This document shows positions 8,691 through 35,218 of a stretch of 35,221 nt of DNA, in pieces. Position 1 is the first letter of the stretch. The number at the start of each line of letters is the position of its first letter. The stretch lies in the NCBI GenBank assembly GCA_964358625.1, contig CAYHPG010000001.1, positions 1 through 35,221 on the forward strand, given 5' to 3'. This DNA comes from an uncultured Gammaproteobacteria bacterium (GTDB lineage: Bacteria > Patescibacteriota > Patescibacteriia > JACQSD01). The notes beneath the pieces are model-generated. The model was not told the origin of the DNA, made no database searches, and worked only from the letters and a program-made list of their open reading frames with translations. A program made the translations under genes and the position numbers.

Positions 8691-9155
8691 CTAAAAAGAT
8701 GTAAAGACTGTATCCCCTATTTTCCACCCCAAACGTTCCGCTGTCCCCGCATTCACTTCAAGAACCCTCGTCGCCGGCATTTTGGGTGCATAAAAAGGCA
8801 AAGCAGAATCCAGCGCACCAAATGCCGGCGCGGGAACGCGTGGAAGAATATCAACGATCTTCCCATCATCAATCCAAATCATATCAAGAGGAATAAACAT
8901 ATCTTTCATCCAAAAACGCTCTGCACTTTTTTCCGGAAAAATAAAAAACATCCCATGATCTTGCGCGAGTGTCATGCGCCCGGAAAGACCCCTGCGCCGC
9001 GTTTCTTCATCACGCGCAACTTCGACAATAATAGATTGTCCACCAATCACGACACGAAATTCTTTCATAGGAGAAAGCCAATAGATCATTCGGAGAATGA
9101 TCGCTGTGGCAATCACAATGCCAAAAATAATAAATGGACGGCGAGAAGAATTCAT
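8691..9155 (-). CDS. DUF192-domain protein with an N-terminal TM anchor
   Basis: The central GLSGR...MFFIFP...FWMKDMFIPLDMIWID pattern is typical of DUF192 (COG1430). The ATG at 9155 forms an ATGA overlap with the upstream stop. The track ORF starts at a GTG at 9176. Confidence 0.75.
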   Translation of the reverse strand: MNSSRRPFIIFGIVIATAIILRMIYWLSPMKEFRVVIGGQSIIVEVARDEETRRRGLSGRMTLAQDHGMFFIFPEKSAERFWMKDMFIPLDMIWIDDGKIVDILPRVPAPAFGALDSALPFYAPKMPATRVLEVNAGTAERLGWKIGDTVFTSF

Positions 9156-13256: not shown

Positions 13257-13617
13257 TGAAGTTCGCAATTATGCCGTAGATAGCAAGAGCGGGTAAAAGG
13301 AGATACAAAAAGAAAACCACCGCCATACACGCCAACCATATAAAGAAAAGGATCGTGCGCCAAAAAAGAATCAGCAAACGAAAAAAGAAACTAATAATCT
13401 TCCCCTGCCAATCTTCTTGCCCGTACATGGGTTTAAAAAGATTCGCGATCCAAAGCCCAAGCGCCAGAGAGCGCTGACGACGAGCAATAGCGCGACCGAT
13501 TGTTTTCCCAATACGAAAAACGCCTTTGGTATACCACCACACGGGAAAGAACAAAAAATCAACAATCGTTTCACGAAAAACTATGAAAAAAAGACGTAAA
13601 ACAAAAGGAGATTGCAT
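13249..13617 (-). CDS. small integral membrane protein, function unknown
   Basis: The 122-aa ORF has 3-4 hydrophobic segments and an ATG start. Its stop overlaps the start of the Clp-like gene by 8 nt. Confidence 0.55.
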   Translation of the reverse strand: MQSPFVLRLFFIVFRETIVDFLFFPVWWYTKGVFRIGKTIGRAIARRQRSLALGLWIANLFKPMYGQEDWQGKIISFFFRLLILFWRTILFFIWLACMAVVFFLYLLLPALAIYGIIANFNG

Positions 13618-14942: not shown

Positions 14943-15000
14943 TCAAAAAGTCATCTGCGAATTATGCACAAGCAATCATTGCAATACCAAAAAAATAAGT

Positions 15001-15038
15001 TGATTCGATTTCCTCACGATCGTGAGGTTTTCGAATCA
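15001..15038. repeat. 38-nt palindrome copy 1 (TGATTCGATTTCCTCACGA|TCGTGAGGTTTTCGAATCA), possibly a bidirectional terminator
   Basis: It is a near-perfect palindrome matching 15633-15670 at 35 of 38 positions (differences only at positions 9-11 of the left arm). The stem CCTCACGA / TCGTGAGG is followed by TTTT. Confidence 0.7.
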
Positions 15039-15046
15039 ATATCATT

Positions 15047-15589
15047 TCAGGATGGATGCATCACACGAAAAACATGAATCCATTTTTCGCTTTTCGTTTC
15101 TTTAATAAATTCACGTATCTCGTCAAAGACCTCACAATTACTGAACCATACGCTGCGTTCAACAATTTGAAAACCGCATTCCTTCAAGAAAGAACGGAAC
15201 TGATCGCGCACATCGCGAGCGCGCTCGGGAATATCGAACGTGACAAGGACACCTTCATTGATCGCGCATTTTCGAGCGCATCGTATTTTTTCTTTTCGTA
15301 TAATAGACTTACCCTTCTCCGTAAGGACAACGGAAATATTTCCTGCTGCATGCTGTATTGTAATCCATTTTTGGCGTTGTAATACGGCAAGTAGTTGCCG
15401 TTGCTCATATTCTGCTCGACGGCTCCAACTCGCGCGCACACCATCAAGACTGCTCCCGCCCGCTAATTGACGATAACTTCGACGATCAGTAAGCGCGGCG
15501 ATTAAATCAACAAAATCCACGGTTGCACTATGCATATTTTCAGCAATCGCGCATAACAACTGTTTTCTTCGAGAAATTTTCTTTTCCAC
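15047..15589 (-). CDS. PaaX-like / Cas2-fold domain regulator (winged-helix plus ferredoxin-like C-terminal domain)
   Basis: The central LQRQKWITIQHAAGNISVVLTEKGK looks like a winged helix. The C-terminal GVLVTFDIPERARDVRDQFRSFLKECGFQIVERSVWFS matches the Cas2 / PaaX-C pattern. The start is a GTG at 15589; an alternative ATG lies at 15535. Confidence 0.55.
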   Translation of the reverse strand: MEKKISRRKQLLCAIAENMHSATVDFVDLIAALTDRRSYRQLAGGSSLDGVRASWSRRAEYEQRQLLAVLQRQKWITIQHAAGNISVVLTEKGKSIIRKEKIRCARKCAINEGVLVTFDIPERARDVRDQFRSFLKECGFQIVERSVWFSNCEVFDEIREFIKETKSEKWIHVFRVMHPS

Positions 15590-15632: not shown

Positions 15633-15670
15633 TGATTCGAAAACCTCACGATCGTGAGGTTTTCGAATCA
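15633..15670. repeat. 38-nt perfect palindrome copy 2 (TGATTCGAAAACCTCACGA|TCGTGAGGTTTTCGAATCA)
   Basis: It is perfectly self-complementary across all 38 nt and pairs as a copy with 15001-15038. Confidence 0.75.
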
Positions 15671-15746
15671 AAACAAAAAAAGGTAAAGTTCGCGTGAACC
15701 CCACCCCATGATGAGTGCCATCTATTAACTCCCCTCCTTTCTGCTC

Positions 15747-20694: not shown

Positions 20695-20716
20695 ATGTAT
20701 AAAAATTTAAAAATTC

Positions 20717-21043
20717 TTAAAGAAAGTTTTGCGCTTTGATTTCTTGCCATGCGTTATTCACCGCGTCCCATTGCCACGCAGAAATCTTGTGTACCATTTC
20801 GGTATCTGAATACTCATATTCGACAGACGTGCTTCCTCCAATACGACGAGAGCCAAGTGTTTTTTTTCCGGTCACCAATGGGTGTGTCACGCGCTCCAAC
20901 TTCATCTTCTTGTCCTCCGGCGCTATAAAACAAATGAACTCTACAAATCCGGGCATGCCATCACGATCGTACTTTCCTTCTTCAAGAACGTTAAACGTAT
21001 CTTTGATATGTCCGACAACCTCTTGCCAACGTTCATCCGTCAT
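20717..21043 (-). CDS. hypothetical soluble protein
   Basis: The 108-aa ORF has an ATG start. I recognise no motif in it. Confidence 0.5.
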   Translation of the reverse strand: MTDERWQEVVGHIKDTFNVLEEGKYDRDGMPGFVEFICFIAPEDKKMKLERVTHPLVTGKKTLGSRRIGGSTSVEYEYSDTEMVHKISAWQWDAVNNAWQEIKAQNFL

Positions 21044-21155
21044 AATAAATTTAAAGTTGAAAAATCAAAATGGAAAATGACAATTTAAAATGTAAAAAAT
21101 AATTTTATCATTTTGCATTATAATTTTGATTTTTGATCTTTGCATTTTACATTAC

Positions 21156-22352: not shown

Positions 22353-22370
22353 AATGCCTCAACTATAACA

Positions 22371-22404
22371 TACAAGGTGCCCATGTATACATGGGCACCT
22401 TGTA
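22371..22404. repeat. 34-nt perfect palindrome (TACAAGGTGCCCATGTA|TACATGGGCACCTTGTA)
   Basis: It is perfectly self-complementary. It shares an ACAAGG(G)TGCCC core with 20090-20127. It lies between the Cys-rich gene and rarA. Confidence 0.8.
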
Positions 22405-22425
22405 AAGACTCCGTAAACTTCCCCT

Positions 22426-22731
22426 TTATTTATGGTCGCACTTGCCGCCGTCACAACACGATCCTTCGCCCGCCTTTTCATCTCCCGAAGATCCGCCACA
22501 TTTCTTTAATGCATGATACACGGCGAGCAGTGACGACAAAAGGCCAAGTCCTACGAGGGCAGTCACATCCTGGTACCAATGCTCTGCATCTTGTCCCCAG
22601 GCGATCCCGTTTTGTGTTGCCACCCACGCAAGGATAAGCGCAACAACTCCTCCAAGCCAAAGAAGCCCAGAGAGCATGTGCATACCCTTCCCGCACTTTG
22701 GTCCGCAGGACCACTTTGAATCATGACACAT
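22426..22731 (-). CDS. Cys/His-rich small membrane protein
   Basis: The 101-aa ORF has two TM helices. These are flanked by MCHDSKWSCGPKCGKG and KKCGGSSGDEKAGEGSCCDGGKCDHK. Confidence 0.55.
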   Translation of the reverse strand: MCHDSKWSCGPKCGKGMHMLSGLLWLGGVVALILAWVATQNGIAWGQDAEHWYQDVTALVGLGLLSSLLAVYHALKKCGGSSGDEKAGEGSCCDGGKCDHK

Positions 22732-22942
22732 AGATTATTTTCTTATTACTTGTTAAACCTCTTTTAATTATAATACGTTCCTTTGCAATATGGAAATGCC
22801 CTGCAAGAAAACGAATAAGCTCCGCATTTGCCTTCCCCTTTTCCGGTGGTGCAGCAATAGCGATTTTTAATGTCCCGTCAGCCATGGTCCCACGCACTGC
22901 GCTCCGCGGTGCATTGGGAATTACTTTTACCGTAATGTGCAT
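22721..22942 (-). CDS. DUF167 (YggU/UPF0235) family protein
   Basis: The 73-aa ORF shows the typical YggU pattern: V.V.PNA..S...G....LKIAIAAPPEKGKAN.ELIRFLA......I..G..S..K. Confidence 0.75.
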   Translation of the reverse strand: MHITVKVIPNAPRSAVRGTMADGTLKIAIAAPPEKGKANAELIRFLAGHFHIAKERIIIKRGLTSNKKIIYVS

Positions 22943-22946
22943 ACCC

Positions 22947-22989
22947 GTAAATCACATGGGCGCCATGTGATGCATGGCGCCCATGTGAT
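22947..22989. repeat. 19-bp-stem hairpin (AAATCACATGGGCGCCATG-tgatg-CATGGCGCCCATGTGATTT)
   Basis: The stem is perfect over 19 bp with a 5-nt loop, and it fills almost the whole intergenic gap. Each arm is itself palindromic (CACATGG-GCG-CCATGTG). Confidence 0.8.
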
Positions 22990-22990
22990 T

Positions 22991-23119
22991 TTATTCTTCA
23001 TCTTCAGTGTCCCCTTCTTCCTTTTCTTCGCTTTCGTCGCTCTCCAGTGGTACTTGGCAGGATGGGCAGTCACCTGCGTCATCTTGCTCGTAACCACACT
23101 CTGGGCATAAATATGCCAT
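22991..23119 (-). CDS. 42-aa zinc-ribbon mini-protein with an acidic tail
   Basis: It is below the ORF-track cutoff. The reverse complement reads MAYLCPECGYEQDDAGDCPSCQVPLESDESEEKEEGDTEDEE-stop, with two CPxC pairs. It is co-directional with the downstream genes and tightly packed against them. Confidence 0.5.
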   Translation of the reverse strand: MAYLCPECGYEQDDAGDCPSCQVPLESDESEEKEEGDTEDEE

Positions 23120-23151
23120 AGATATTTTTATTTTTTAAACCTCATGCACAA

Positions 23152-23180
23152 GAAATATCATGCTACAAAATCCGTGTCAA
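23152..23180 (-). promoter_or_regulatory. possible sigma70-type promoter upstream of the zinc-ribbon/yggU unit
   Basis: The minus strand has TTGACA (23180-23175), a 17-nt spacer and then TATTTC (23157-23152). The -10 element is weak. Confidence 0.3.
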
Positions 23181-23234
23181 CGAAGTTTTCCCCACCTCAT
23201 CTCATCGTTAGAATTTTCAAAATGTCTGAATTTT

Positions 23235-23305
23235 TCGGGCTGCCGGGAATTGAACCCGGTCTTTACCCTCCCGAAGGGCACGTACTACCGGTATACGACA
23301 GCCCG
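23235..23305 (-). tRNA. tRNA-Pro (anticodon CGG)
   Basis: The reverse complement is CGGGCTGTCGTATACCGGTAGTACGTGCCCTTCGGGAGGGTAAAGACCGGGTTCAATTCCCGGCAGCCCGA. The acceptor stem is CGGGCTG / CAGCCCG, the anticodon loop is TTCGGGA (G37) and the T arm is CCGGG/TTCAATT/CCCGG. No CCA is encoded. Confidence 0.85.
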
Positions 23306-24430: not shown

Positions 24431-24994
24431 TTAGAAAGTCTTCGTATAGCAATAGATGCGATCGTTCTTGCCGATAGGAATCATTTCACTTTTCCAATTT
24501 GAAGAAAGTGGAATGGAAAATTTATACGATACAATCCGCGCCCCATTCGGTAACTGTTCAAACCGCAGCGCTAAGCGTGTCAGAACACTTGTAATCAAAA
24601 AACAAAACACCACCGTAACACCATCGAGTGGATAAATAAAAAGATTTTGCTTCTCCCACGTGACACTCCCCCGTTGACGCGTACAGAGTTGCCGTAATCG
24701 CGATGCCGCTAAAAGCATAGGTGACAATTCAACGCCGACAACAGTTACCGGATATTGTCGCGCGACCTCAAGAACGATGCGACCTGTTCCTGATCCAAGG
24801 TCTACCACGCGGTCATGCGTCTGAATGCCCGCGAGCGCAATCATGCGACGAATGATGGAATACGGCGTTGGCACGTACGGCAACTCTCTTCGCATTGTCC
24901 AAAGTACGTAGCCAAAATATGACACGAGAATAAAAAAACACAATGCGGTCAAAAGCTGCATTGCGAGAACAAAAAGAACAACGTCACCGTTCAT
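24431..24994 (-). CDS. class I SAM-dependent methyltransferase with an N-terminal TM helix
   Basis: VVDLGSGTGRIVLEVA is SAM-binding motif I. The start forms an ATGA overlap with the alaS stop. Confidence 0.75.
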   Translation of the reverse strand: MNGDVVLFVLAMQLLTALCFFILVSYFGYVLWTMRRELPYVPTPYSIIRRMIALAGIQTHDRVVDLGSGTGRIVLEVARQYPVTVVGVELSPMLLAASRLRQLCTRQRGSVTWEKQNLFIYPLDGVTVVFCFLITSVLTRLALRFEQLPNGARIVSYKFSIPLSSNWKSEMIPIGKNDRIYCYTKTF

Positions 24995-26910
24995 TCGACA
25001 ATAGCTTTAATGCGCCGTATGCCAGCAGATACCGCCTCTTCTTTCACAATTTTAAATTTCCCCACCTGCCCTGTGTGCTCCACATGTGGCCCACCGCAAA
25101 TTTCCACTGAAAAATAACTATGCCCTGAGCTTGTCGAAGGGTCACCCATAAAATACACTTTAATCTTTGCGCCAAGCTCTGCATACTTGTCATCAAAAAG
25201 CCCAATAGCACCACGAGTTTTCGCCTCTTCAACGGTGAGCATCTCAAAATGCACGGGAAGATCGCGACGTACTTGCTCATTCACAATATCTTCCGCTTTC
25301 TTTATTTCTTCCGGCGTCATCTTATTCGGATGGATAAAATCAAATCGCAAGCGCTCTTTCGTGATATTACTCCCCTTTTGATACACATGATTCCCCAGCA
25401 CATCGCGTAGCGCCTGATGGACAAGATGCGTTGCCGTATGTTGGCGAACAACTTCCCACGAGTGATCCGCAAGTCCGCCGGCGAATTTCTGCGTCGCGCC
25501 GGCGCGAGAGAGGTCTTGGTGTTTTTTGAAATATTCGTCAAACTCTTTTTTAAATTCTTTTTCATCTACTACAAGTGCTCTTCGCGCAAGCTCCTCCTGG
25601 ATCATTTCCAATGGAAAACCATATGTTTGATAAATATCAAATGCCCGTTTTGCATCAACGCGGTTAAAGATAGGATACTCCTGCCCTTCTTCTATCCGCT
25701 CGATCTTTCCGATACGTATAAGACTCTCAAGTTTTTTCAATCCCTTTTCGAGTGTCCGATCAAACTTCTCTTCTTCTTTTATAAGCTCGGCAAATACTTT
25801 TTCTTTATTACGCTCCACTTCCGGATATACGTCACGAAAAATTGTAACAACGGCGCTTGCAACGTCCGCACAAAATTTACCCTTGAGCCCCAACTGCCGA
25901 GCATAGCGAATCGCCCGCCGTATCAATCGCCGCACTACATACCCTTGATCCACGTTCGAGGGAACGATCCCACGATCATCCGCCATAATCATCGTCGCCG
26001 TGCGCAAATGATCCGCGACAATCCGCATCGCCCGTTGCTCAATCTTACGAGGTCCGACCTCATAAGATTGATACTGTTTCCCCGATAATTGCTCAACTTT
26101 TTGAATAAGTGGCCAAAACGTATCAATTTGAAAAACATCGTGATATCCGTTCAATGCAACAAGCGTCCGCTCCAAGCCCATCCCGGTATCAACATTTTTT
26201 TGCCTTAACGGAACAAACTCATATTCCGACCCCTGACTTTCGACTTTCGACTTTACAGACTTTACGACTTTATTGTATTGCATGAAGACGTCGTTCCAAA
26301 TCTCGAGCCAATTGTCTTCGTCCGTTGCGGGGTTGCTCGACTCCGGCGGATACTCTCCTTCCCCAGTCCAATAAAACATTTCCGTGTCCGGCCCGCATGG
26401 CCCTGTTTGCCCTGCTGGCCCCCACCAATTATTTTTCTTCGGAAGATAGGCGATCTTATGCTCCGGAACACCCACCGACTTCCAGATGTTCGCTGACTCT
26501 TCATCGCGCGGGGCATCAGCATCCCCTTCAAATACCGACACCGCAAGCTTCTTCGGATCAATGCCAAGCCATTTTTTTGCAGCCAAAAACTCCCAGCTCC
26601 ACTGGATTGCGTCTTTCTTAAAGTAGTCACCCAAAGACCAGTTCCCCAGCATCTCAAAAAATGTGTCGTGGCGATTGTCCCCGACCTCGTCAATATCCTG
26701 CGTACGCACCGATTTTTGCGCATTCGCCAACCGCTTGCCCCCCGGATGCGGTTCACCTAAAAGATACGGCACGAGCGGATGCATCCCGGCGGTCGTAAAC
26801 AACACCGTCGGATCATTTTCCGGAATCAAAGAAGCGGAAGGGATCACCGTATGCCCCTTCTCTTTAAAAAATCGTAAATACTTTTCACGGAGTTCGTTTG
26901 AGGTCATCAT
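24991..26910 (-). CDS. alaS: alanine--tRNA ligase, short form ending after the editing domain
   Basis: The protein begins [43 protein letters not shown]. It also contains DTGMGLER, editing-domain [12 protein letters not shown] and CGGPHV, and it ends ...[10 protein letters not shown]. The track ORF (to 27123) adds 71 implausible residues that overlap the receiver gene. Confidence 0.9.
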   Translation of the reverse strand: [639 protein letters not shown]

Positions 26911-26963
26911 GCAAAGAATGATAGCAAAATGAAAGAAAAAAGAAAAGTTTTTAAATTGAAGAA

Positions 26964-26988
26964 GCCCGTTGTAAACGTACAGCCGGGC
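26964..26988 (-). terminator. possible terminator hairpin after the receiver gene
   Basis: The stem is GCCCG...CGGGC with an inner TGTA/TACA pairing, and the sequence after it on the minus strand is T-rich. The evidence is weak. Confidence 0.3.
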
Positions 26989-26998
26989 CTCGATATCT

Positions 26999-27364
26999 TT
27001 ACCTCGGCGCGGTGCCGAAAAGGAGATTCCGTATAAGCGGCGGGACCTCCCATGGTGCCGCGCGATGACTCGCGCCATCATTGAGAAGCGCCGTTGTAAA
27101 TGAGGAGTCGGTTGACTTCGCAATGATAGGTTCTTTAAACCCTTTCTCGCGGATCAACCGTACAAGCGCTTGCGTATTGGGCTTATTACCCGGTACACAG
27201 CAATCAACGACCATGAGCGCAAAATCGAGCGATCCTCCCACGATGCGCTCCGCGTCTTCGATCGTGCTTGACGAAACGATCTCTACCTCATTCTTGAGAA
27301 GACCCATCCATGCCTTAACGAACAGCTCCTCGTCCTCCACGATGAGCACTTTTGGCTTCTCCAT
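26999..27364 (-). CDS. stand-alone response-regulator receiver domain (atypical)
   Basis: The 121-aa ORF has KVLIVEDEE (acidic pocket), a putative phospho-acceptor in ALMVVDCCVPG and IIAKSTD. I could not find the conserved K-P. No output domain and no adjacent kinase are present. Confidence 0.65.
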   Translation of the reverse strand: MEKPKVLIVEDEELFVKAWMGLLKNEVEIVSSSTIEDAERIVGGSLDFALMVVDCCVPGNKPNTQALVRLIREKGFKEPIIAKSTDSSFTTALLNDGASHRAAPWEVPPLIRNLLFGTAPR

Positions 27365-27386
27365 CCACTACCCTCCTAAAAAATTC

Positions 27387-29222
27387 CTAACGCTTCCACC
27401 GCTTTGTCGGATGAATCACGACACCTCGTTTATGATGCAGGAAATTACGGATAGTGTCAATGGGATACCCGCCGTATATATAGGCGCGCAGGGCTGTCGT
27501 CCATTCACCAGGTTTAAGTTTAGGACGACGCCAACCAAAGGATTTTCCAACGGCATTCCACATGCGCTTTTCCGCTACTTTTTCTTCCCTGCTACTTTTA
27601 CGCATCACGCCATAGAATGATGGACGATCTGGCGCAGTAAAAAGTGGTGTGGGTGCCGCTTCTGCTGCAAACAATGTCCGAACCTTCGGCAAAGGGAGCA
27701 CAGGGGTAAATCCACCCGGGACAGGCGCCGCAAACTGTGGTGCCAAAGCAAGAGGGATGGTTATTGCATAAACTTCCTCGTTGAAATCGACGTTCCCTTT
27801 TGCGTCTTCTGCGCGAATCACATAACGATAGAGAACACCGCGCCCTCCTTGCGTATCAATAAATGTCTGTACACCTCGCGCAACGCGCCCATAGATCTTC
27901 CCCCCATCAACCGGTGTTGTCCCTCCGCGATTCCGAAGAATCATCATACTCGCAAGATCATCGTCCGATGGATCGTGCCACGTAATCGTAATTACGCCAT
28001 CATGTTCCTGCAATACAACATTCGTTGGCGCTCCGGGGGCCGTAACATCGCGCTCGGATTTTACCGGTTCTGTTGTAACACTTGGCTCTCCTGGTTCTCC
28101 TTTCACTGGTTGCGGAAGTTCCGGTGGCGCGCTTGGGGGAATGCTCGGCGGTGGAAGTACCGGAGCTGTTACAACACCCCAATACTTTACCAGAACATCA
28201 AGCGCTGGTTTTTTTCTATTCAAATTATGATCTTTATCCGTCGTTCCGCCAATCCACGGCTTAATATTCCACATCCACCAAACAATGCCCGTCACCCACG
28301 GCGTATCTTTCCATGTATCTAAGAGCGCCTCAATGCCGTCTGCTTGTTCCTGCAGATCCACTTTTGCAACCGGATTGCACCACCAGGTGATGCGTGTGCC
28401 GCCGTCGCAACTTTTGTATCCCGCTTCAGTAAAAATCACCGGCTTTTGGTATCGGTCATGCACCGCAGTTATCTGATCAATCCACCGCTCTTCTCTCCCT
28501 TCGTATTGGATACTCTTCCACCCCGAACGCATGTCGGCAAATCTCGAGGCATTCGTTGTAGACACGGGAAAGTACGCCTGAATGCCGATAAAATCAAGCG
28601 CGTCCCACCAATTTATTTTTTCATACTCCGCATTCCCCTTCGTCCCCCAGTTCGCTCCATAGCCGATTGCGCCGTGATATTCCTGCCGAACCGCGCGAAT
28701 GATGTCGCGCCACTTTTCCGCATACTGCGGAGTGGAAAGGGTAGCGTACTCTGAACCAATGACATACGATGCGACACGCAAACGTTCAGCCATCTTTGCG
28801 TAATACACCGCAAAACTTTTATAGCTTGCAAACCATGCTGTCGGATTCGACGGCTGAAACTGTCCGCGCCACACGCCGTTCTCTGCATCCACATACGGCT
28901 TCAGCATAACCTTTAATCCGTTATCATGTGCGAGCGCAATGACATGCTCGACGCTCGCGTCTGTCGCAGTGCGATCTCGATGCGCGCGCATCGTCGTTGC
29001 GAACTGATCCGTTTGATACCAAAACGGCTCGACCGCAACCACGTTCGGCTTTGTCGCGAGCATCTCACGAAACGAATCATCAGACCACGACTGGCTGTAC
29101 GAATCAAACCACCATGAGGGAAAATTAAACCCCATGGAAAATGACATGTCGTATGCGGCATTGCTATACGAAGGCAAGAGCAAAATGCCCAGTAATACGA
29201 TGGTATACAAATATTTTTTCAT
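27387..29222 (-). CDS. secreted glycoside-hydrolase-like protein (clan GH-A TIM-barrel-like) with an Fn3-like domain
   Basis: It has a signal peptide (MKKYLYTIVLLGILLLPSYSNA). IGSEY and FTEAGY resemble clan-A acid/base and nucleophile strands. A Pro-rich linker follows, then an Fn3-like segment (APGAPTNVVLQEHDGVITITWHDPSDDD). The GH family assignment is uncertain. Confidence 0.7.
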   Translation of the reverse strand: MKKYLYTIVLLGILLLPSYSNAAYDMSFSMGFNFPSWWFDSYSQSWSDDSFREMLATKPNVVAVEPFWYQTDQFATTMRAHRDRTATDASVEHVIALAHDNGLKVMLKPYVDAENGVWRGQFQPSNPTAWFASYKSFAVYYAKMAERLRVASYVIGSEYATLSTPQYAEKWRDIIRAVRQEYHGAIGYGANWGTKGNAEYEKINWWDALDFIGIQAYFPVSTTNASRFADMRSGWKSIQYEGREERWIDQITAVHDRYQKPVIFTEAGYKSCDGGTRITWWCNPVAKVDLQEQADGIEALLDTWKDTPWVTGIVWWMWNIKPWIGGTTDKDHNLNRKKPALDVLVKYWGVVTAPVLPPPSIPPSAPPELPQPVKGEPGEPSVTTEPVKSERDVTAPGAPTNVVLQEHDGVITITWHDPSDDDLASMMILRNRGGTTPVDGGKIYGRVARGVQTFIDTQGGRGVLYRYVIRAEDAKGNVDFNEEVYAITIPLALAPQFAAPVPGGFTPVLPLPKVRTLFAAEAAPTPLFTAPDRPSFYGVMRKSSREEKVAEKRMWNAVGKSFGWRRPKLKPGEWTTALRAYIYGGYPIDTIRNFLHHKRGVVIHPTKRWKR

Positions 29223-29226
29223 ATCT

Positions 29227-29374
29227 ACTGTGAATTACGAAACTCTCTTTATTCCCTCTCCCTCAATGGGAGAGGGTTAGGGTGAGGGTGGAAATAAGGG
29301 GCTTTTTTTACACACCCTCCCCTTAGTCCCCTCCCATCAAGGGAGGGGAAAACCGGAGTTTCGTAATTCACAGT
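29227..29374. mobile_element. MITE-like 148-bp composite palindrome with 19-bp terminal inverted repeats
   Basis: The TIRs are ACTGTGAATTACGAAACTC (29227-29245) and GAGTTTCGTAATTCACAGT (29356-29374). ATCT flanks both sides. The three internal hairpins are CCCTCTCCC/GGGAGAGGG, GAGGGTG/CACCCTC and TCCCCTCCC/GGGAGGGGA. Confidence 0.55.
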
Positions 29375-29917
29375 ATCTACTTTTACCCTAATACTTTGAC
29401 GGAAAAAAGCAAGTTACAAAAAAAGAACCCGGGTGAAACACGGCGTTGTTAACCTTCCCGAATTAACACGCAATGCTCCACCCAGGGATACAAAATGGGA
29501 GAGTGAATTTCAGTCTTTTCTTCTGCAGGGGTCCATTTATAAAGTTGAGCATATACTATCGTGACAAGAAAATTTCTTTTCTTATATGGATAGTATGCCT
29601 TTCTTCAAGAATCCCCTGTAAAAGACAGCCAGTTGCTGCCGGTTCCTAAGTGCGCATACGTTTATCCCGCATGGGTTAAAAGCCCATTTGGCAAGGGATT
29701 CCTTTCGCTCGCTGGTAGGTCCAGAAAGCACGGGTTCTGTTTAAGGCATTGCCATTGGAGAAAGAAAAATAAATTCTCCCATCCACAGAACCTTTATAAG
29801 GAATCCAACAAACGGCGACTTAAGCAGTAACCGCACCTCTGACTTTCACTCACCCTCCCGAATAAAGAACGATCTGATTAGTATCAGAAAGGAGCATAAC
29901 AGAAGGAGTAAAAAGCG

Positions 29918-30292
29918 TCAAGCGGTCTCAATCACCTCGCCCAAATGCTCCTTCCATCTCTCCTTGGTCCAGAGCTCAAGCACATCGTTTTCCCACACGA
30001 GCACGACCGTTTTTTCGGTAAAATACGATCGCAGTTCGAGTGGGATATACGTCCGCCAAACTCTATCAATACGCAACGGCATGACGATCTTGCTTCTCCC
30101 TCCTTTCCTTTCCCATGCCTGCGTATCCGCGTAGATGCAAAGATTCGTTGCGCAGACTGACTGCTCCCCGAATACTTCGCGCAACGCGACCGGCAGTACG
30201 AAACGCCGAGCATCATCCATCCGGAGGATGAAGGCGCCGTAACATACCCCAGAAACTTTCTCCAAAACACCCTCTCTTGATCCCCCGGTCAC
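29918..30292 (-). CDS. MraZ-like protein (two SpoVT/AbrB-like half-domains)
   Basis: The 124-aa ORF has RMDDARRFVLPVALREVFG and RIDRVWRTYIPLELRSYFTEKTVVLVWENDVLELWTKERWKE. These mirror the duplicated MraZ pattern (LDxKGRxxIPxxxR ... IEIWxxxxW). It has a GTG start and no dcw genes nearby. Confidence 0.6.
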   Translation of the reverse strand: MTGGSREGVLEKVSGVCYGAFILRMDDARRFVLPVALREVFGEQSVCATNLCIYADTQAWERKGGRSKIVMPLRIDRVWRTYIPLELRSYFTEKTVVLVWENDVLELWTKERWKEHLGEVIETA

Positions 30293-30346
30293 GCTTTCGC
30301 AGACGTATCACTCTTCACGCTTTCGCGTGAGGAAGATAATAAAGCT

Positions 30347-30514
30347 TTATAATTCGAATGGCCATCCATGTGCGACACGCCGTTGATGCGCGCGCTCCAT
30401 CCGCTTCTCTCGACCGAGGCTCCTACGATAATGCCAGACCCCGAGCGCGACTCCGATCGCGAAGAGCAATAACCACCCAGGCCAATAGAGCAAAAACGCC
30501 ACTGTCTTTCCCAT
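30347..30514 (-). CDS. 55-aa single-TM protein
   Basis: It is below the track cutoff. The sequence is MGKTVAFLLYWPGWLLLFAIGVALGVWHYRRSLGREKRMERAHQRRVAHGWPFEL. It is preceded by a strong SD (gttAAGGAGGggcgATG). Confidence 0.55.
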   Translation of the reverse strand: MGKTVAFLLYWPGWLLLFAIGVALGVWHYRRSLGREKRMERAHQRRVAHGWPFEL

Positions 30515-30577
30515 CGCCCCTCCTTAACTATCGAAACCTTTCAGAAAGAGGATTGCGAGACCACCCCGCAATCATTT

Positions 30578-30820
30578 TCACGCAGCGTTCGGATTGTTCT
30601 CCACCTTTTCGATGGAAAGTTTGCCGTGCCGCAGACGGACATGAAGGGCAAGTAACGACTCGTCATTTGCCCACTCGTAGTTCGTCCAGCGAATGCCGCA
30701 GCTGCAGCATTCCCGACGACGCCGGATTCCGTCTTTGACGGCACGACTGTCGACGACCTTCGCCTTCCCTTTGCACTTCGGACAACGAATCCCCTTCTCT
30801 TCTTGGGACGAACCAGACAT
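30578..30820 (-). CDS. NrdR-like zinc-ribbon protein without an ATP-cone
   Basis: The 80-aa protein starts at an internal ATG preceded by aGAAGGAGGtatcgcccATG. [39 protein letters not shown] parallels the NrdR N-terminus (CPxC..TKVIDSR....RRRRxCxxC..RFTTFE). The longer track ORF (to 31063) is an Arg-rich GC artefact. Confidence 0.65.
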
Positions 30821-30900
30821 GGGCGATACCTCCTTCTTTTGATCCCCCGGTCCATCCCTCCTCAATTCCGACACCGTGCCGGAACCCACCCTCGCGCTAC

Positions 30901-31170
30901 TCAACCTTTCTTCCACCACTCGCCGTCGTCTTCTGTGTCTCCCTCCGGAGACCAGTGCACGACGTCCGGTGGTGAAACCCGTTCCTTTGCGTACATCTTC
31001 CACCAGCCGACAACGCTTATGATCGTGTCCGAGGTCATGATGTACTCTCGGACAAACACCCACGAATAGAATCGGCGAGCGTAGTCTTTAGCGAAAAAAA
31101 CATAAAACACTGCGATGCCGATCATCGCGGGGACTCCAATCCCATACATCAAGAAGTTTTCCATAGGCAT
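30901..31170 (-). CDS. 89-aa single-TM protein with an acidic, Trp-rich tail
   Basis: The protein begins [30 protein letters not shown]. Its ATG lies after gccGGGGaATG, 11 nt downstream of the preceding mini-ORF stop. Confidence 0.5.
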
Positions 31171-31180
31171 TCCCCGGCTT

Positions 31181-31297
31181 TCAGTCTTTACTACGGATTT
31201 CTCGTATCGTAGCCCACACTGCACATCCAAGGGCAATAACGCACCCAAGGATAACCGTGCCTGTAATGCCGTAAAAAAGATACGCTTGCCAGATCAC
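31181..31297 (-). CDS. 38-aa single-TM mini-protein (GTG start)
   Basis: GAGGAGGGGaagacGTG follows directly after the mnmA stop. The product reads (M)IWQAYLFYGITGTVILGCVIALGCAVWATIREIRSKD. It is below the track cutoff. Confidence 0.4.
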   Translation of the reverse strand: MIWQAYLFYGITGTVILGCVIALGCAVWATIREIRSKD

Positions 31298-31309
31298 GTC
31301 TTCCCCTCC

Positions 31310-32449
31310 TCAAACAATCACGCCGCCGCCAAGCATGTGTTCTCCCTGATAGAAAACACATGCCTGCCCGGGCGTAACTGCGCGTTGCGGGTTTTTGAAC
31401 TCGACGGTAACCCCCTCTCCCGCTCTCTTCACTGTCGCCTCCTGCAACGCTTGACGATAGCGTATTCTTGCCTTGCAGTCAAGAGGAAAAGTTTGCACAT
31501 CACGGGAAATCCAATGAATACTCTCAAGAAATGCTTCTTTACGATACAGCGCCGCGTCCTCTTTCCCTTGCGCAACAATAACTCTATTCGCTACAACATT
31601 TTTCTCTACAACAAAATACGGTGTTCCGCCACCCGGACTTCCGATGCCATGACGCTGGCCGATTGTCATGTAGTGCGCCCCTTCATGCGTTCCCACCACT
31701 TCCCCGCTTGTGGTTACGAGTGCACCCTCTCGCGGCGCTAATCGCGTCTTCAAAAAATCTCGCACCGGAATCTTCCCCAAAAAACATAATCCTTGGCTGT
31801 CCTTGCGATTCGCCGTCGGCAACCCCCACTCTTTTGCCATTTTCCGCACCTCCGTCTTCGTATACTCACCAATTGGAAACAGCACGTAACGTAATTGCTC
31901 TTGAGTAAGTGAATAGAGAAAATAACTTTGATCTTTATTTAAGTCCTTCGCTTTGAGAAGCGCATAGGGGTGACACGCGGAGGGGGTCCCACCGCCCGCC
32001 CCAGCAGGTCCCTGACCGATGCGGTCGGATGGGGGTGTAGCGTGGCAGGACCCCGAACCATGAGTTAATCGAACATAATGTCCAGTAGCAATTGCGTCCG
32101 CACCCTCTGCAAGCGCGCGCTTCAAAAAAATCCCAAACTTGATTTCCCGATTACACATGATGTCCGGGTTCGGCGTCCGCCCTGCTTCATACTCCGCAAA
32201 AAAATACGACACTACCTTCTCGTAATATTCCCGCGACACATCCCACACTTCAAATGGAATTTTTAAGTGCTCTGCAACCGCGCTCGCATACCGAACATCC
32301 TCCTCCCACGGACAGCCCTGCATTAAATCCTCCAAATCCGGCGACCACACTTTCAAATACACGCCACGCACAACATGGCCCTCTTTTTGCAAGAGGGCCG
32401 CTGCGACAGAGGAATCCACTCCACCTGATAAACCCACAAATACTTTCAT
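31310..32449 (-). CDS. mnmA: tRNA 2-thiouridine(34) synthase MnmA with a GC-rich internal insertion
   Basis: The protein contains VGLSGGVDSSVAA (PP-loop), GRTPNPDIMCN, ATGHY, NKDQSYFLY and DSQGLCFLG. There are about 25 extra residues between GHYVR and LLKAKDLNKDQSYFLY. Confidence 0.9.
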   Translation of the reverse strand: MKVFVGLSGGVDSSVAAALLQKEGHVVRGVYLKVWSPDLEDLMQGCPWEEDVRYASAVAEHLKIPFEVWDVSREYYEKVVSYFFAEYEAGRTPNPDIMCNREIKFGIFLKRALAEGADAIATGHYVRLTHGSGSCHATPPSDRIGQGPAGAGGGTPSACHPYALLKAKDLNKDQSYFLYSLTQEQLRYVLFPIGEYTKTEVRKMAKEWGLPTANRKDSQGLCFLGKIPVRDFLKTRLAPREGALVTTSGEVVGTHEGAHYMTIGQRHGIGSPGGGTPYFVVEKNVVANRVIVAQGKEDAALYRKEAFLESIHWISRDVQTFPLDCKARIRYRQALQEATVKRAGEGVTVEFKNPQRAVTPGQACVFYQGEHMLGGGVIV

Positions 32450-34189: not shown

Positions 34190-35218
34190 TTATATTACGA
34201 AAGAGCATTGAGTTCTGTCAAACGATGGCCTAATATTTTCCTGTATTATCGTCTGCAATATCTTCGCGTTCCCATGCTGTAAAAGCCCAAGATACGATTG
34301 CAACATGCTGTTATTTCCCTGTTTCTCTGCTAGACGGCGCATCATTCTTCTCTTTGTCGCCGTGCGCAGAACCCGATGATCCATAAAATGCACCCAGCCA
34401 AGAAAATCAACGCCAGAAGCAACTGTACGAAGAAAAATCTTATCCGGATGCATTCGTAAACGCAGACGATCCCATAAAAACTCCTCCATGGCGGGCAACA
34501 AGCGCTGTAACCATTCTTTGTTCGAAGACAGCACAACAAAATCGTCGGCATAGCGAATATAATAATGCGCCTTGAGCTTGTGCTTTACAAATTGATCAAA
34601 TGTATTCATGTACATATTCACGAACAACTGCGACGTCAGATTCCCAAGAGGAAGACCGACCCCTTTCTCTCGCGTATAAAAACTTCCGAGGATTTTCGAA
34701 ATGAGCAAAATAATCTCCCGATCGGGTATATACTGCTCAAGAATGCTCAAAAGAATACGCTGATCGATCGAGGCAAAAAACTTTCGGATATCACATTGCA
34801 GTACCCATACTGTTTTCGTTTGCCCTTCTGATACGCGATACGCAAAAGAACAAAATTGCTCTATCGCCTTGTGCGTTCCTTTACCCTGCCGGCACGAGTA
34901 CGAATCGGCGATAAACGTCCGATCAAAAAACGGATACAATATCCGATACAACGCGCGGTGCAATACGCGATCGCGCACCGATGCTTTGTGGATATTTCTT
35001 GGTTTCGGATCCGCAATATCAAATGCTTCATATGGTGAATGCCGATACGTCTTTGCAACCAAATCATTATGGAGCGCGATAATATTCCCCATAAAATCAA
35101 AAGCAAACTCCTGCACGTCCTTTCTGCTACGTTTCCCACGCACAAATTCCTTCCACGCGTCTAGAAGATTTTCGAGCGAAATGATATCGTGATAACTATA
35201 ATCAAATTGTAATTTCAT
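34190..35218 (-). CDS. diversity-generating-retroelement (DGR)-type reverse transcriptase
   Basis: The 342-aa ORF has RT motifs 1-7: PKPRNIHKASVRDRVLHRAL, SYSCRQGKGTHKA, VLQCDIRKFFASID, GLPLGNLTSQLFVNMYM (the DGR-diagnostic LGxxxSQ) and YIRYADDFVVL (YxDD). It has no maturase or endonuclease extension. Confidence 0.85.
   Translation of the reverse strand: MKLQFDYSYHDIISLENLLDAWKEFVRGKRSRKDVQEFAFDFMGNIIALHNDLVAKTYRHSPYEAFDIADPKPRNIHKASVRDRVLHRALYRILYPFFDRTFIADSYSCRQGKGTHKAIEQFCSFAYRVSEGQTKTVWVLQCDIRKFFASIDQRILLSILEQYIPDREIILLISKILGSFYTREKGVGLPLGNLTSQLFVNMYMNTFDQFVKHKLKAHYYIRYADDFVVLSSNKEWLQRLLPAMEEFLWDRLRLRMHPDKIFLRTVASGVDFLGWVHFMDHRVLRTATKRRMMRRLAEKQGNNSMLQSYLGLLQHGNAKILQTIIQENIRPSFDRTQCSFVI

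Follow-up and report, generated by a model that had tools for sequence, protein, structure and literature searches.

The analysed window is a stretch of 35,221 nt with a G + C content of 0.473, and its minus strand carries nearly all of the coding sequence. This analysis concerns the segment at 29918-31309, located 3' of mnmA (31310-32449), where the first-pass annotation had described a foreign module of five small co-directional genes. All five genes are present on the minus strand. They encode three membrane mini-proteins (TM38, TM89, and TM55), a stand-alone zinc ribbon of the NrdR type (ZnR80), and an MraZ-like protein, and downstream of the last gene 695 nt without a gene precede a GH113 glycosidase. 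Loci of relatives are labelled L081-L088 and individual related proteins P0125, P0137, and P0138. The features of the segment, in the direction of reading, are as follows:

31181-31297, minus strand: TM38, a 38-aa single-pass membrane mini-protein with a GTG start
30901-31170, minus strand: TM89, 87-89 aa, with a membrane helix at the N-terminus and a conserved C-terminal domain rich in Trp and acidic residues
30821-30900, minus strand: leader of ZnR80, the 80 nt between TM89 and ZnR80, highly conserved
30578-30820, minus strand: ZnR80, an 80-aa stand-alone C4 zinc ribbon of the NrdR type followed by a C-terminal beta-hairpin
30551-30573, minus strand: terminator-like hairpin with a 10-bp stem, directly 3' of ZnR80
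30347-30514, minus strand: TM55, a single-pass membrane mini-protein of 55 aa whose C-terminal tail is rich in Arg
30266-30346, minus strand: region 5' of the MraZ-like gene, with a box copy, a direct repeat, a palindrome, and a promoter-like site
29918-30265, minus strand: MraZ-like gene, 115 aa, TTG start (longest open reading frame, 29918-30292)
29815-29917, minus strand: conserved region 3' of the MraZ-like gene, with stem-loops and a terminator-like hairpin (29815-29834)

Word-indexed searches of 5.8 billion protein clusters, which were run for ZnR80 and the MraZ-like protein only, returned one relative for each, in the lineages L081 and L082, respectively, which are represented by two short Logan contigs. 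L081 reads mnmA-TM36-TM85-ZnR76 with 79% nucleotide identity to the window, and L082 reads TM51-MraZ115 with 83% identity. A 1011-nt contig from Hainich groundwater was 99.9% identical to the window in the MraZ-like region. The ratio of nonsynonymous to synonymous divergence (dN/dS) was 0.21 for TM38, 0.42 for TM89, and 0.19 for ZnR80 in comparison with L081, 0.28 for TM55 and 0.15 for the MraZ-like gene in comparison with L082, and 0.17 for mnmA. Ratios of 0.15-0.42 indicate that the five small genes are real protein-coding genes under purifying selection. The synonymous divergence (dS) of the small cassette genes was 0.5-1.35, and that of the flanking mnmA was 0.74. The cassette genes have thus been inherited together with mnmA since the split of the two lineages. 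The acquisition is not the recent one proposed in the first-pass annotation: the cassette is shared with a relative at a dS in the range of mnmA and is kept under purifying selection.

The Arg/Pro-rich open reading frames at 30358-30738 (plus strand) and 30541-30855 (minus strand), which had been taken as spurious from the outset, do exist and were rejected as genes because the annotated frames hold the domain hits and show dN/dS <1. A 1-nt indel in L081 breaks the frame at 30541-30855, and an extended 161-aa form of ZnR was rejected owing to the same indel. The overlapping Arg-rich frames are by-products of GC-rich sequence.

The 1392-nt segment has a G + C content of 0.536 compared to a window mean of 0.474 (standard deviation, 0.023). 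Non-overlapping 1.4-kb blocks elsewhere in the window reached 0.523 at most, so the segment is the most GC-rich, and the visible rise in GC reported earlier was confirmed on the scale of window blocks. The content is also mildly raised over the whole 27000-32449 interval (0.510 vs. 0.467). The G + C content at third codon positions (GC3), pooled for TM89, ZnR80, TM55, and the MraZ-like gene, was 0.636 compared to 0.454 in 23 background genes; among random 116-codon blocks of background genes, 1.9% reached a GC3 of 0.62. TM38, with a GC3 of 0.44, is background-like.

A strong Shine-Dalgarno (SD) sequence had been claimed before each of the five genes. The duplex energies with the anti-SD sequence were -12.7 for TM38, -13.0 for ZnR80, -12.6 for TM55, and a weaker -8.6 for the MraZ-like gene, which agrees with that claim for these four genes, but the value for TM89 was -3.1 when computed at the first ATG. 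TM89 probably starts at the second ATG (31164, 87 aa), for which the GGGGA motif lies at a workable spacing. The 26 other genes of the window had a mean energy of -1.6 (standard deviation, 2.7; Mann-Whitney p = 0.0016). The strongest SD sites of the window belong to TM38 (GAGGAGGGG at 31303-31311, overlapping the mnmA stop codon), ZnR80 (AAGGAGG at 30829-30835), and TM55 (AAGGAGG at 30519-30525), and the housekeeping genes have none. The contrast with the housekeeping genes therefore stands, but it is not exclusive to the island: in a scan of all possible starts of the window, a CheY-like gene (26999-27364) was the sole other real gene with a strong SD (AGGAGGG). The SD motifs of ZnR80 and the MraZ-like gene are unchanged in comparison with L081 and L082 over a dS of ~0.5-1.0, and that of TM38 is altered in L081. 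The retention of the former two, together with an SD that precedes mnmA in L087, suggests that the SD sites are used.

A different start signal was seen in the background genes. In several of those preceded by an intergenic gap, a TAnnnT box lies 9-16 nt before the ATG. Many first genes, including those starting at 13617, 22352, 10261, 15589, and 20694 and genes in L083, L086, and L087, lack an SD and show such a -10-like box ending ~6-10 nt before the ATG, a pattern that would fit leaderless mRNAs.

MnmA, by sequence similarity, places the organism in Patescibacteria (Parcubacteria), with Candidatus Uhrbacteria as its nearest named relatives at 64% identity. Around mnmA in 80 loci of GTDB Patescibacteria and others (MnmA identity ≤52%), no relative of any of the five proteins was found. 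The closer relatives L083-L087 were recovered through MnmA matches (64-75% identity), and their gene order corresponds to that of the window at 24991-32449 for alaS, the methyltransferase gene, MgsA, the 137-aa gene, and DUF4012. The content between mnmA and alaS differed in each of them. L083-85 (MnmA 72%, GCA_040960315.1) contain mnmA, 38-aa and 43-aa membrane proteins, a 226-aa lipoprotein, and alaS, after which come the methyltransferase and MgsA genes also seen in the window. L086 (MnmA 75%) contains mnmA, two unknown genes, a GH113 gene, a 420-aa gene, a HicB-HicA toxin-antitoxin pair, and alaS, and L087 (MnmA 64%) has 61-aa and 70-aa genes after mnmA. No match to TM89, ZnR80, TM55, or the MraZ-like protein was detected by tblastn in the L083-L087 loci.

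Because the content of the interval differs in every relative examined, the mnmA-alaS interval is a hypervariable slot in the Uhrbacteria-like clade. The genes in this slot in L083-L087 mostly have a strong SD (-9.3 to -12.9) and a GC3 of 0.57-0.72, whereas their neighbours, such as DnaB, alaS, and SecD, do not. The SD and GC3 contrast is thus a general, clade-wide property of slot cargo and not peculiar to the island. The idea of a foreign small module survives in part: the module is lineage-specific, being absent from L083-L087 and from the 80 loci mentioned above, but the contrast that had marked it as foreign is not unique to it.

The family assignment of ZnR80 as an NrdR zinc ribbon without the ATP-cone, already made by eye, was corroborated by a Pfam match to PF22811 (Zn_ribbon_NrdR; E value, 1.2e-12) with no match to the ATP-cone. 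The NrdR model TIGR00244 gave 40.7 bits compared to a cut-off of 124.65 and aligned over just the first 46 of its 147 profile positions, and ZnR80 itself stops at residue 80. NrdR chains in the PDB matched by sequence at 1e-6, and the CPxC...DSR...RRRREC..C pattern is aligned with the E. coli NrdR chains. ZnR80 retains the DNA-contact signature of NrdR (VVDSR and IRRRREC), and its invariant residues are kept in a 54-sequence alignment. The AlphaFold2 model from this alignment had a pLDDT of 79.6 (>90 at residues 11-50) and showed only a beta-hairpin after the ribbon. The top PDB matches of this model in Foldseek were all NrdR (probability, 1.00; root-mean-square deviation, 0.9-1.2 A over ~45 residues). 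NrdR proper (COG1327), a repressor of ribonucleotide reductase (RNR) genes that senses ATP and dATP, thus shares with ZnR80 the N-terminal ribbon (~1 A) and the sequence signature. Unlike NrdR, ZnR80 has no ATP-cone, hence no nucleotide sensing or cone-mediated oligomerisation, and neither nrd genes nor NrdR boxes are nearby: no RNR gene was found among the annotated genes of the window, and an NrdR-box consensus had no match in the window at ≤3 mismatches.

The stand-alone ribbon had been regarded as an oddity, which is not the case. An HMM search of 1.84 billion representatives with ZnR80 returned 7254 proteins at E ≤1e-3, and the best 150 of them were mostly 60-130 aa long; some relatives are truncated NrdR fragments, and many have unique tails. 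In BFVD, the best viral matches of the model by Foldseek were dozens of phage proteins of 51-105 aa annotated as "NrdR-like N-terminal domain." The PHROG families 36879 and 10675 also matched ZnR80, and no other cassette protein matched PHROGs significantly. Four contexts of stand-alone ribbons were examined. P0138 lies beside SSB on a 66-kb phage contig with integrase, DarA, and endolysin-like genes, and P0137 lies on a phage contig with P22-type portal, coat, and terminase genes. P0125, the closest non-orthologous relative of ZnR80 with the same beta-hairpin-type tail, adjoins an excisionase-type gene (HTH_17) and an integrase, and L088 is an IMG/VR viral contig with primase/helicase and HNH genes.

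Given the thousands of short relatives, the four phage or integrase contexts, and the BFVD matches, the ribbon without ATP-cone is a common phage-associated type of small protein, and ZnR80 is a chromosomal member of it. Like the phage proteins, ZnR80 falls in the range of 60-130 aa and combines a C4 ribbon carrying the DSR and RRRR(E)C motifs with a short tail of its own kind, and the predicted fold of ZnR80 superposes on short phage proteins. ZnR80 differs from them in its chromosomal position between housekeeping genes. No phage or integrase gene was found around it in the window, where its neighbours are mnmA, the membrane-protein genes, and the MraZ-like gene. It also has RWTNYEW where the stand-alone family has RFTTYE or RWTTYE. 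To our knowledge, no function has been demonstrated for stand-alone phage NrdR-like ribbon proteins.

The MraZ-like protein matched Pfam MraZ in two stretches (E value, 1e-9; 38.7 bits; cut-off, 23), but the equivalog model TIGR00242 gave 29.9 bits compared to a cut-off of 98.35. Its residues 5-37 and 64-109 align in register to residues 19-51 and 99-145 of solved MraZ chains, and both DxxxR motifs (D17-R21 and D67-R71) are kept. In the MraZ-DNA structures of M. genitalium, K13, R15, and R86 contact the GTG(T/G) boxes (PMC12957436). Equivalents of R15 and R86 are present in the MraZ-like protein, and the equivalent of K13 is Ala19, with Arg20 adjacent. The AlphaFold2 model, built from a 2-sequence alignment, had a mean pLDDT of 38.7 and was unusable for a fold search. 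The protein shares 85% amino acid identity with its relative in L082. Its start is most likely the TTG at 30265, since the upstream GTG and ATG are out of frame in L082. The orphan MraZ-like protein described earlier is therefore upheld as to family and to the lack of a division and cell wall (dcw) context, but its length is likely 115 and not 124 aa. No rsmH, fts (ftsL, ftsI, and ftsZ), or mur genes were found in the 35-kb window, and tblastn against phages and plasmids gave no match. MraZ-type GTG(T/G) boxes upstream of the gene were rejected, with spacings of 7, 19, and 22 nt compared to the canonical ~10-11 nt and with GTG being too common.

Like MraZ (PF02381 and TIGR00242), which is encoded by the first dcw gene, the protein has two tandem SpoVT/AbrB-like half-domains, each with a DxxxR motif. 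Unlike MraZ (~140-160 aa), it is ~30 residues shorter, falls far below the equivalog cut-off, lacks the rsmH/dcw context, has Ala at the K13 position, and is restricted to one small lineage. It is filed here as a divergent MraZ-family paralogue, not as a cell-division regulator.

The three remaining products were confirmed as single-pass membrane mini-proteins, each with one strongly hydrophobic 19-residue segment (Kyte-Doolittle, 1.97-2.14; residues 13-31 in TM38) beside short charged tails. L084 has an SD-led gene for a 38-aa membrane protein at the same position after mnmA. Considering this counterpart of the same length and position and the background-like GC3, TM38 is probably native and not cargo. 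TM89 shares 62% amino acid identity with its relative in L081, and its acidic, Trp-containing C-terminal tail resembles that of the 61-aa protein of L087. No relatives of TM89 were found in Pfam, PHROG, PADLOC, or among phages and viral contigs, and tblastn against phages gave no match.

The non-coding parts of the cassette contain several signals. A 21-nt box, GACCGGGGGATCAA(A/G)AGA(A/G)GG, occurs in exactly two copies in the window, where 0 are expected by chance, and its core is kept in L081 and L082. The individual elements are as follows:

30832-30852, minus strand: 21-nt box copy 1, GACCGGGGGATCAAAAGAAGG, 12 nt before the ZnR80 start codon and overlapping its SD
30289-30300 and 30315-30326, minus strand: perfect 12-nt direct repeat, TCACGCTTTCGC, upstream of the MraZ-like gene
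30336-30353, minus strand: AT-rich palindrome upstream of the MraZ-like gene
30270-30290, minus strand: 21-nt box copy 2, 5 nt before the MraZ-like start codon and overlapping its SD

The first TCACGCTTTCGC repeat is conserved in L082, as is the 21-nt box. Nucleotide identity to L081 is 90-97% in the 80-nt ZnR80 leader and over the initial 60 nt of the ZnR80 gene, compared to ~79% in the flanking coding sequence, and the position in L081 that matches the hairpin after ZnR80 holds a canonical hairpin with a T-run. Taken together, the hairpin, repeats, and box suggest two expression units and a shared control of the two putative DNA-binder genes. Scanning IMG/VR for the MraZ-like protein, TM89, or the 21-nt box gave no match. 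An Rfam scan of the island gave no family at the gathering score, and in E-value mode it gave only microRNA-like matches to a long hairpin outside the island. The region 3' of the MraZ-like gene is conserved for ~75 nt in L082, and its fold is not significant (z -1.1). At 29840-29917 (minus strand), after the MraZ-like stop codon, two anti-SD-like CUCCUU motifs are predicted to pair with a downstream GGGAGGG; one base pair of this fold is changed on both sides in L082, and the folding energy is not significant.

On balance, we lean toward reading the segment as an accessory cassette specific to the lineage and derived, in part at least, from a mobile element, which sits in a variable slot of an Uhrbacteria-related Patescibacteria genome from groundwater and is kept by selection. 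It shows the deviating composition and the patchy distribution among close relatives that are features of genomic islands. It also resembles phage morons and small chromosomal islets, which likewise are compact sets of small genes that differ in composition from their surroundings, bring their own translation signals, and occupy, behind a conserved operon, a slot filled differently from one relative to the next. It differs from them in having no recognisable prophage, att sites, or mobility gene and in being as diverged as the flanking gene. A mobile-element origin is plausible for the zinc-ribbon gene by analogy with its relatives in phages or beside Xis and integrase genes. The phage or plasmid remnant envisaged in the first-pass annotation is thus plausible for the ribbon, but TM89, TM55, and the MraZ-like protein have no phage or plasmid relatives. 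The family assignments, the reality of the genes, and their distribution, composition, and SD contrast are established; a foreign origin for the genes other than the ribbon gene, the operon layout, and the logic of regulation are inferred.

Under this cassette reading, TM89, ZnR80, TM55, and the MraZ-like gene would have been added in a recent ancestor of the organism and one sampled relative and then retained by purifying selection, and TM38 would belong to the mnmA operon itself, as a piece of its fast-evolving native tail. TM38, TM89, and ZnR80 may be read as the SD-dependent tail of a glnA-like/PPIase/mnmA transcript, up to the hairpin after ZnR80, with TM55 and the MraZ-like gene as a second expression unit. 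As VVDSR/IRRRREC and both DxxxR motifs are retained, ZnR80 and the MraZ-like protein may act as small sequence-specific DNA binders, and the 21-nt box could mediate common control or autoregulation of their genes. The three mini-proteins would then be the effectors that act on the membrane, in the manner of phage moron, exclusion, or envelope-modulating proteins.

Several observations weigh against the cassette reading. SD-led, GC3-rich small genes follow mnmA in all close relatives, so the signal could reflect a native gene class and not foreign DNA. No tRNA was found at the segment borders and no phage structural genes nearby, and the only flanking att-like repeat was a 14-nt pair with one mismatch, of which ~0.5 are estimated by chance. 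TM89, TM55, and the MraZ-like protein had no phage, plasmid, or defence-system relatives in the libraries searched. Because the divergence of the cassette equals that of the neighbouring core gene mnmA, a foreign origin is neither datable nor traceable to a donor. L081 and L082 come from different samples, so that in relatives the cassette is represented by two separate contigs. A regulatory role of the 21-nt box, which the ribosome-binding sites of both DNA-binder genes share, would be a putative one. Hairpins predicted to enclose the SD and start of ZnR80 and of the MraZ-like gene were rejected as structured RNA leaders (z -0.7 to -1.5 vs. shuffles), and the pairing on the MraZ side is not kept in L082.

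The main rival is a native, fast-evolving operon tail, in which a clade-specific class of small proteins, always encoded after mnmA, turns over rapidly through divergence and the SD and GC3 signals reflect an expression mode, in a genome whose housekeeping genes are translated without SD, rather than a foreign origin. We consider this possible though rather unlikely. It accounts for the SD-led small membrane-protein genes after mnmA in L081, L083-85, and L087, for the counterpart of TM38 in L084 and the TM89-like tail in L087, and for the equal dS of the cassette and mnmA. The lack of mobility genes (the earlier statement that no integrase or mobility gene is present proved correct) and of flanking repeats also agrees with it, as does the conservation of the SD motifs of ZnR80 and the MraZ-like gene in L081/L082, although the TM38 motif is altered in L081. 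What it does not explain is that no homologue of ZnR80, TM89, TM55, or the MraZ-like protein is detectable in the slot at 64-75% MnmA identity, that the slot of the relatives holds unrelated cargo (HicBA, GH113, and the lipoprotein), and that the stand-alone relatives of the ribbon are phage-borne.

A more ambitious version of the cassette reading is distinctly unlikely. It would make the segment a self-contained module in which a dcw-independent mini-MraZ and a cone-less ribbon jointly control the membrane proteins via the 21-nt box, the membrane proteins serving either phage exclusion or the contact between episymbiont and host. The slot would in that case be a dedicated hot spot for swapping small membrane-protein genes, translated in an SD-dependent regime apart from that of the housekeeping genes, which is SD-independent and partly leaderless.

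A toxin-antitoxin or abortive-infection module, in which the MraZ/AbrB-fold protein and perhaps the ribbon are antitoxin-repressors and one or more of the mini-proteins are membrane-depolarising toxins, is very unlikely. Pfam labels MraZ "putative antitoxin-like," a HicBA pair occupies the same slot in L086, and weak matches were obtained to PHROG antitoxins (E value, 0.08) and, for TM38, to an Fst-type toxin (E value, 0.06), but none of these PHROG antitoxin and Fst matches comes near significance. Nothing in PADLOC matched any of the five proteins, which also lack known toxin domains, and the gene order with three separate membrane-protein genes fits no described type. Degenerate housekeeping regulators, namely a true cell-division MraZ displaced from dcw and a truncated NrdR controlling RNR genes, are hardly credible: the family-level matches, both DxxxR motifs, and the NrdR DNA-contact residues agree with this view, but the equivalog scores (29.9 vs. 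98 for TIGR00242 and 40.7 vs. 125 for TIGR00244), the absence of rsmH, fts, mur, and nrd genes from the 35-kb window and of an NrdR-box-like site, and the absence of the genes from close relatives, unexpected for core regulators, do not.

Other features of the window were noted in the course of the analysis. A near-perfect palindrome of 146 nt (29228-29373; RNA fold, -95.5 kcal/mol; z -12.9) separates the GH113 start codon (ATG) from a conserved promoter-like sequence. It has perfect 18-nt terminal inverted repeats (CTGTGAATTACGAAACTC; arms, 29228-29245 and 29356-29373) and is flanked by duplicated TAGATA. L082 reads GTAGATATG uninterrupted at this site, and given this empty site the palindrome looks like an insertion resembling a miniature inverted-repeat transposable element. 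No further copies were found in the window or the fetched loci. Within mnmA, positions 31941-32060 include a Gly/Pro-rich insert of ~30 residues (HATPPSDRIGQGPAGAGGGTPSACHPY), a loop whose length varies among relatives; its DNA is 92-97% identical to L081, well above the average of the gene.

The CheY-like gene at 26999-27364 (minus strand), between the GH113 gene and alaS, encodes a 121-aa receiver-type protein (MEKPKVLIVEDEE...) with no Pfam match at 1e-5 and only a weak NCBIfam response-regulator match. Because it overlaps the start of alaS in the longest frame, alaS must really begin further downstream. A gene at 15047-15589 (minus strand) lies between two copies, 92% identical, of the 39-nt palindrome TTGATTCGAAAACCTCACGATCGTGAGGTTTTCGAATCAA (15000-15039 and 15633-15671). 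This gene encodes a 180-aa protein with a C-terminal PaaX_M/Cas2-like domain (Pfam, 3.5e-14; TIGR01573 just above the cut-off). At the window edge, 34190-35218 (minus strand) encodes a 342-aa reverse transcriptase (Pfam RVT_1, 6e-24) whose best matches are group-II-intron-type and CRISPR-associated models (PADLOC RT, 3.6e-52; TIGR04416, 148 bits with a cut-off of 300). No template or variable repeats of a diversity-generating retroelement were found for it in the window. Three stretches of 400-900 nt (22353-23234, 8728-9151, and 20695-21155) have no convincing reading frame or Rfam match, and the longest of them (22353-23234) adjoins tRNA-Pro (23235-23305).

With respect to the biology of this clade, the slot is more informative than the island itself. 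In the cassette, the phage-type NrdR ribbon, widespread but unstudied, is present as a chromosomal copy under selection, and the very reduced MraZ-family protein adjoining it makes a compact test case for minimal DNA binders in reduced genomes. The anti-SD motif is reported to be absent from about half of the 16S rRNA genes of Parcubacteria (PMC9297842). In the Uhrbacteria-like clade, a strong SD and a raised GC3 mark the variable genes of one slot, and the housekeeping genes have no SD. If the SD sites are functional, the genome would have two translation regimes; otherwise, they would be relics that flag foreign DNA.

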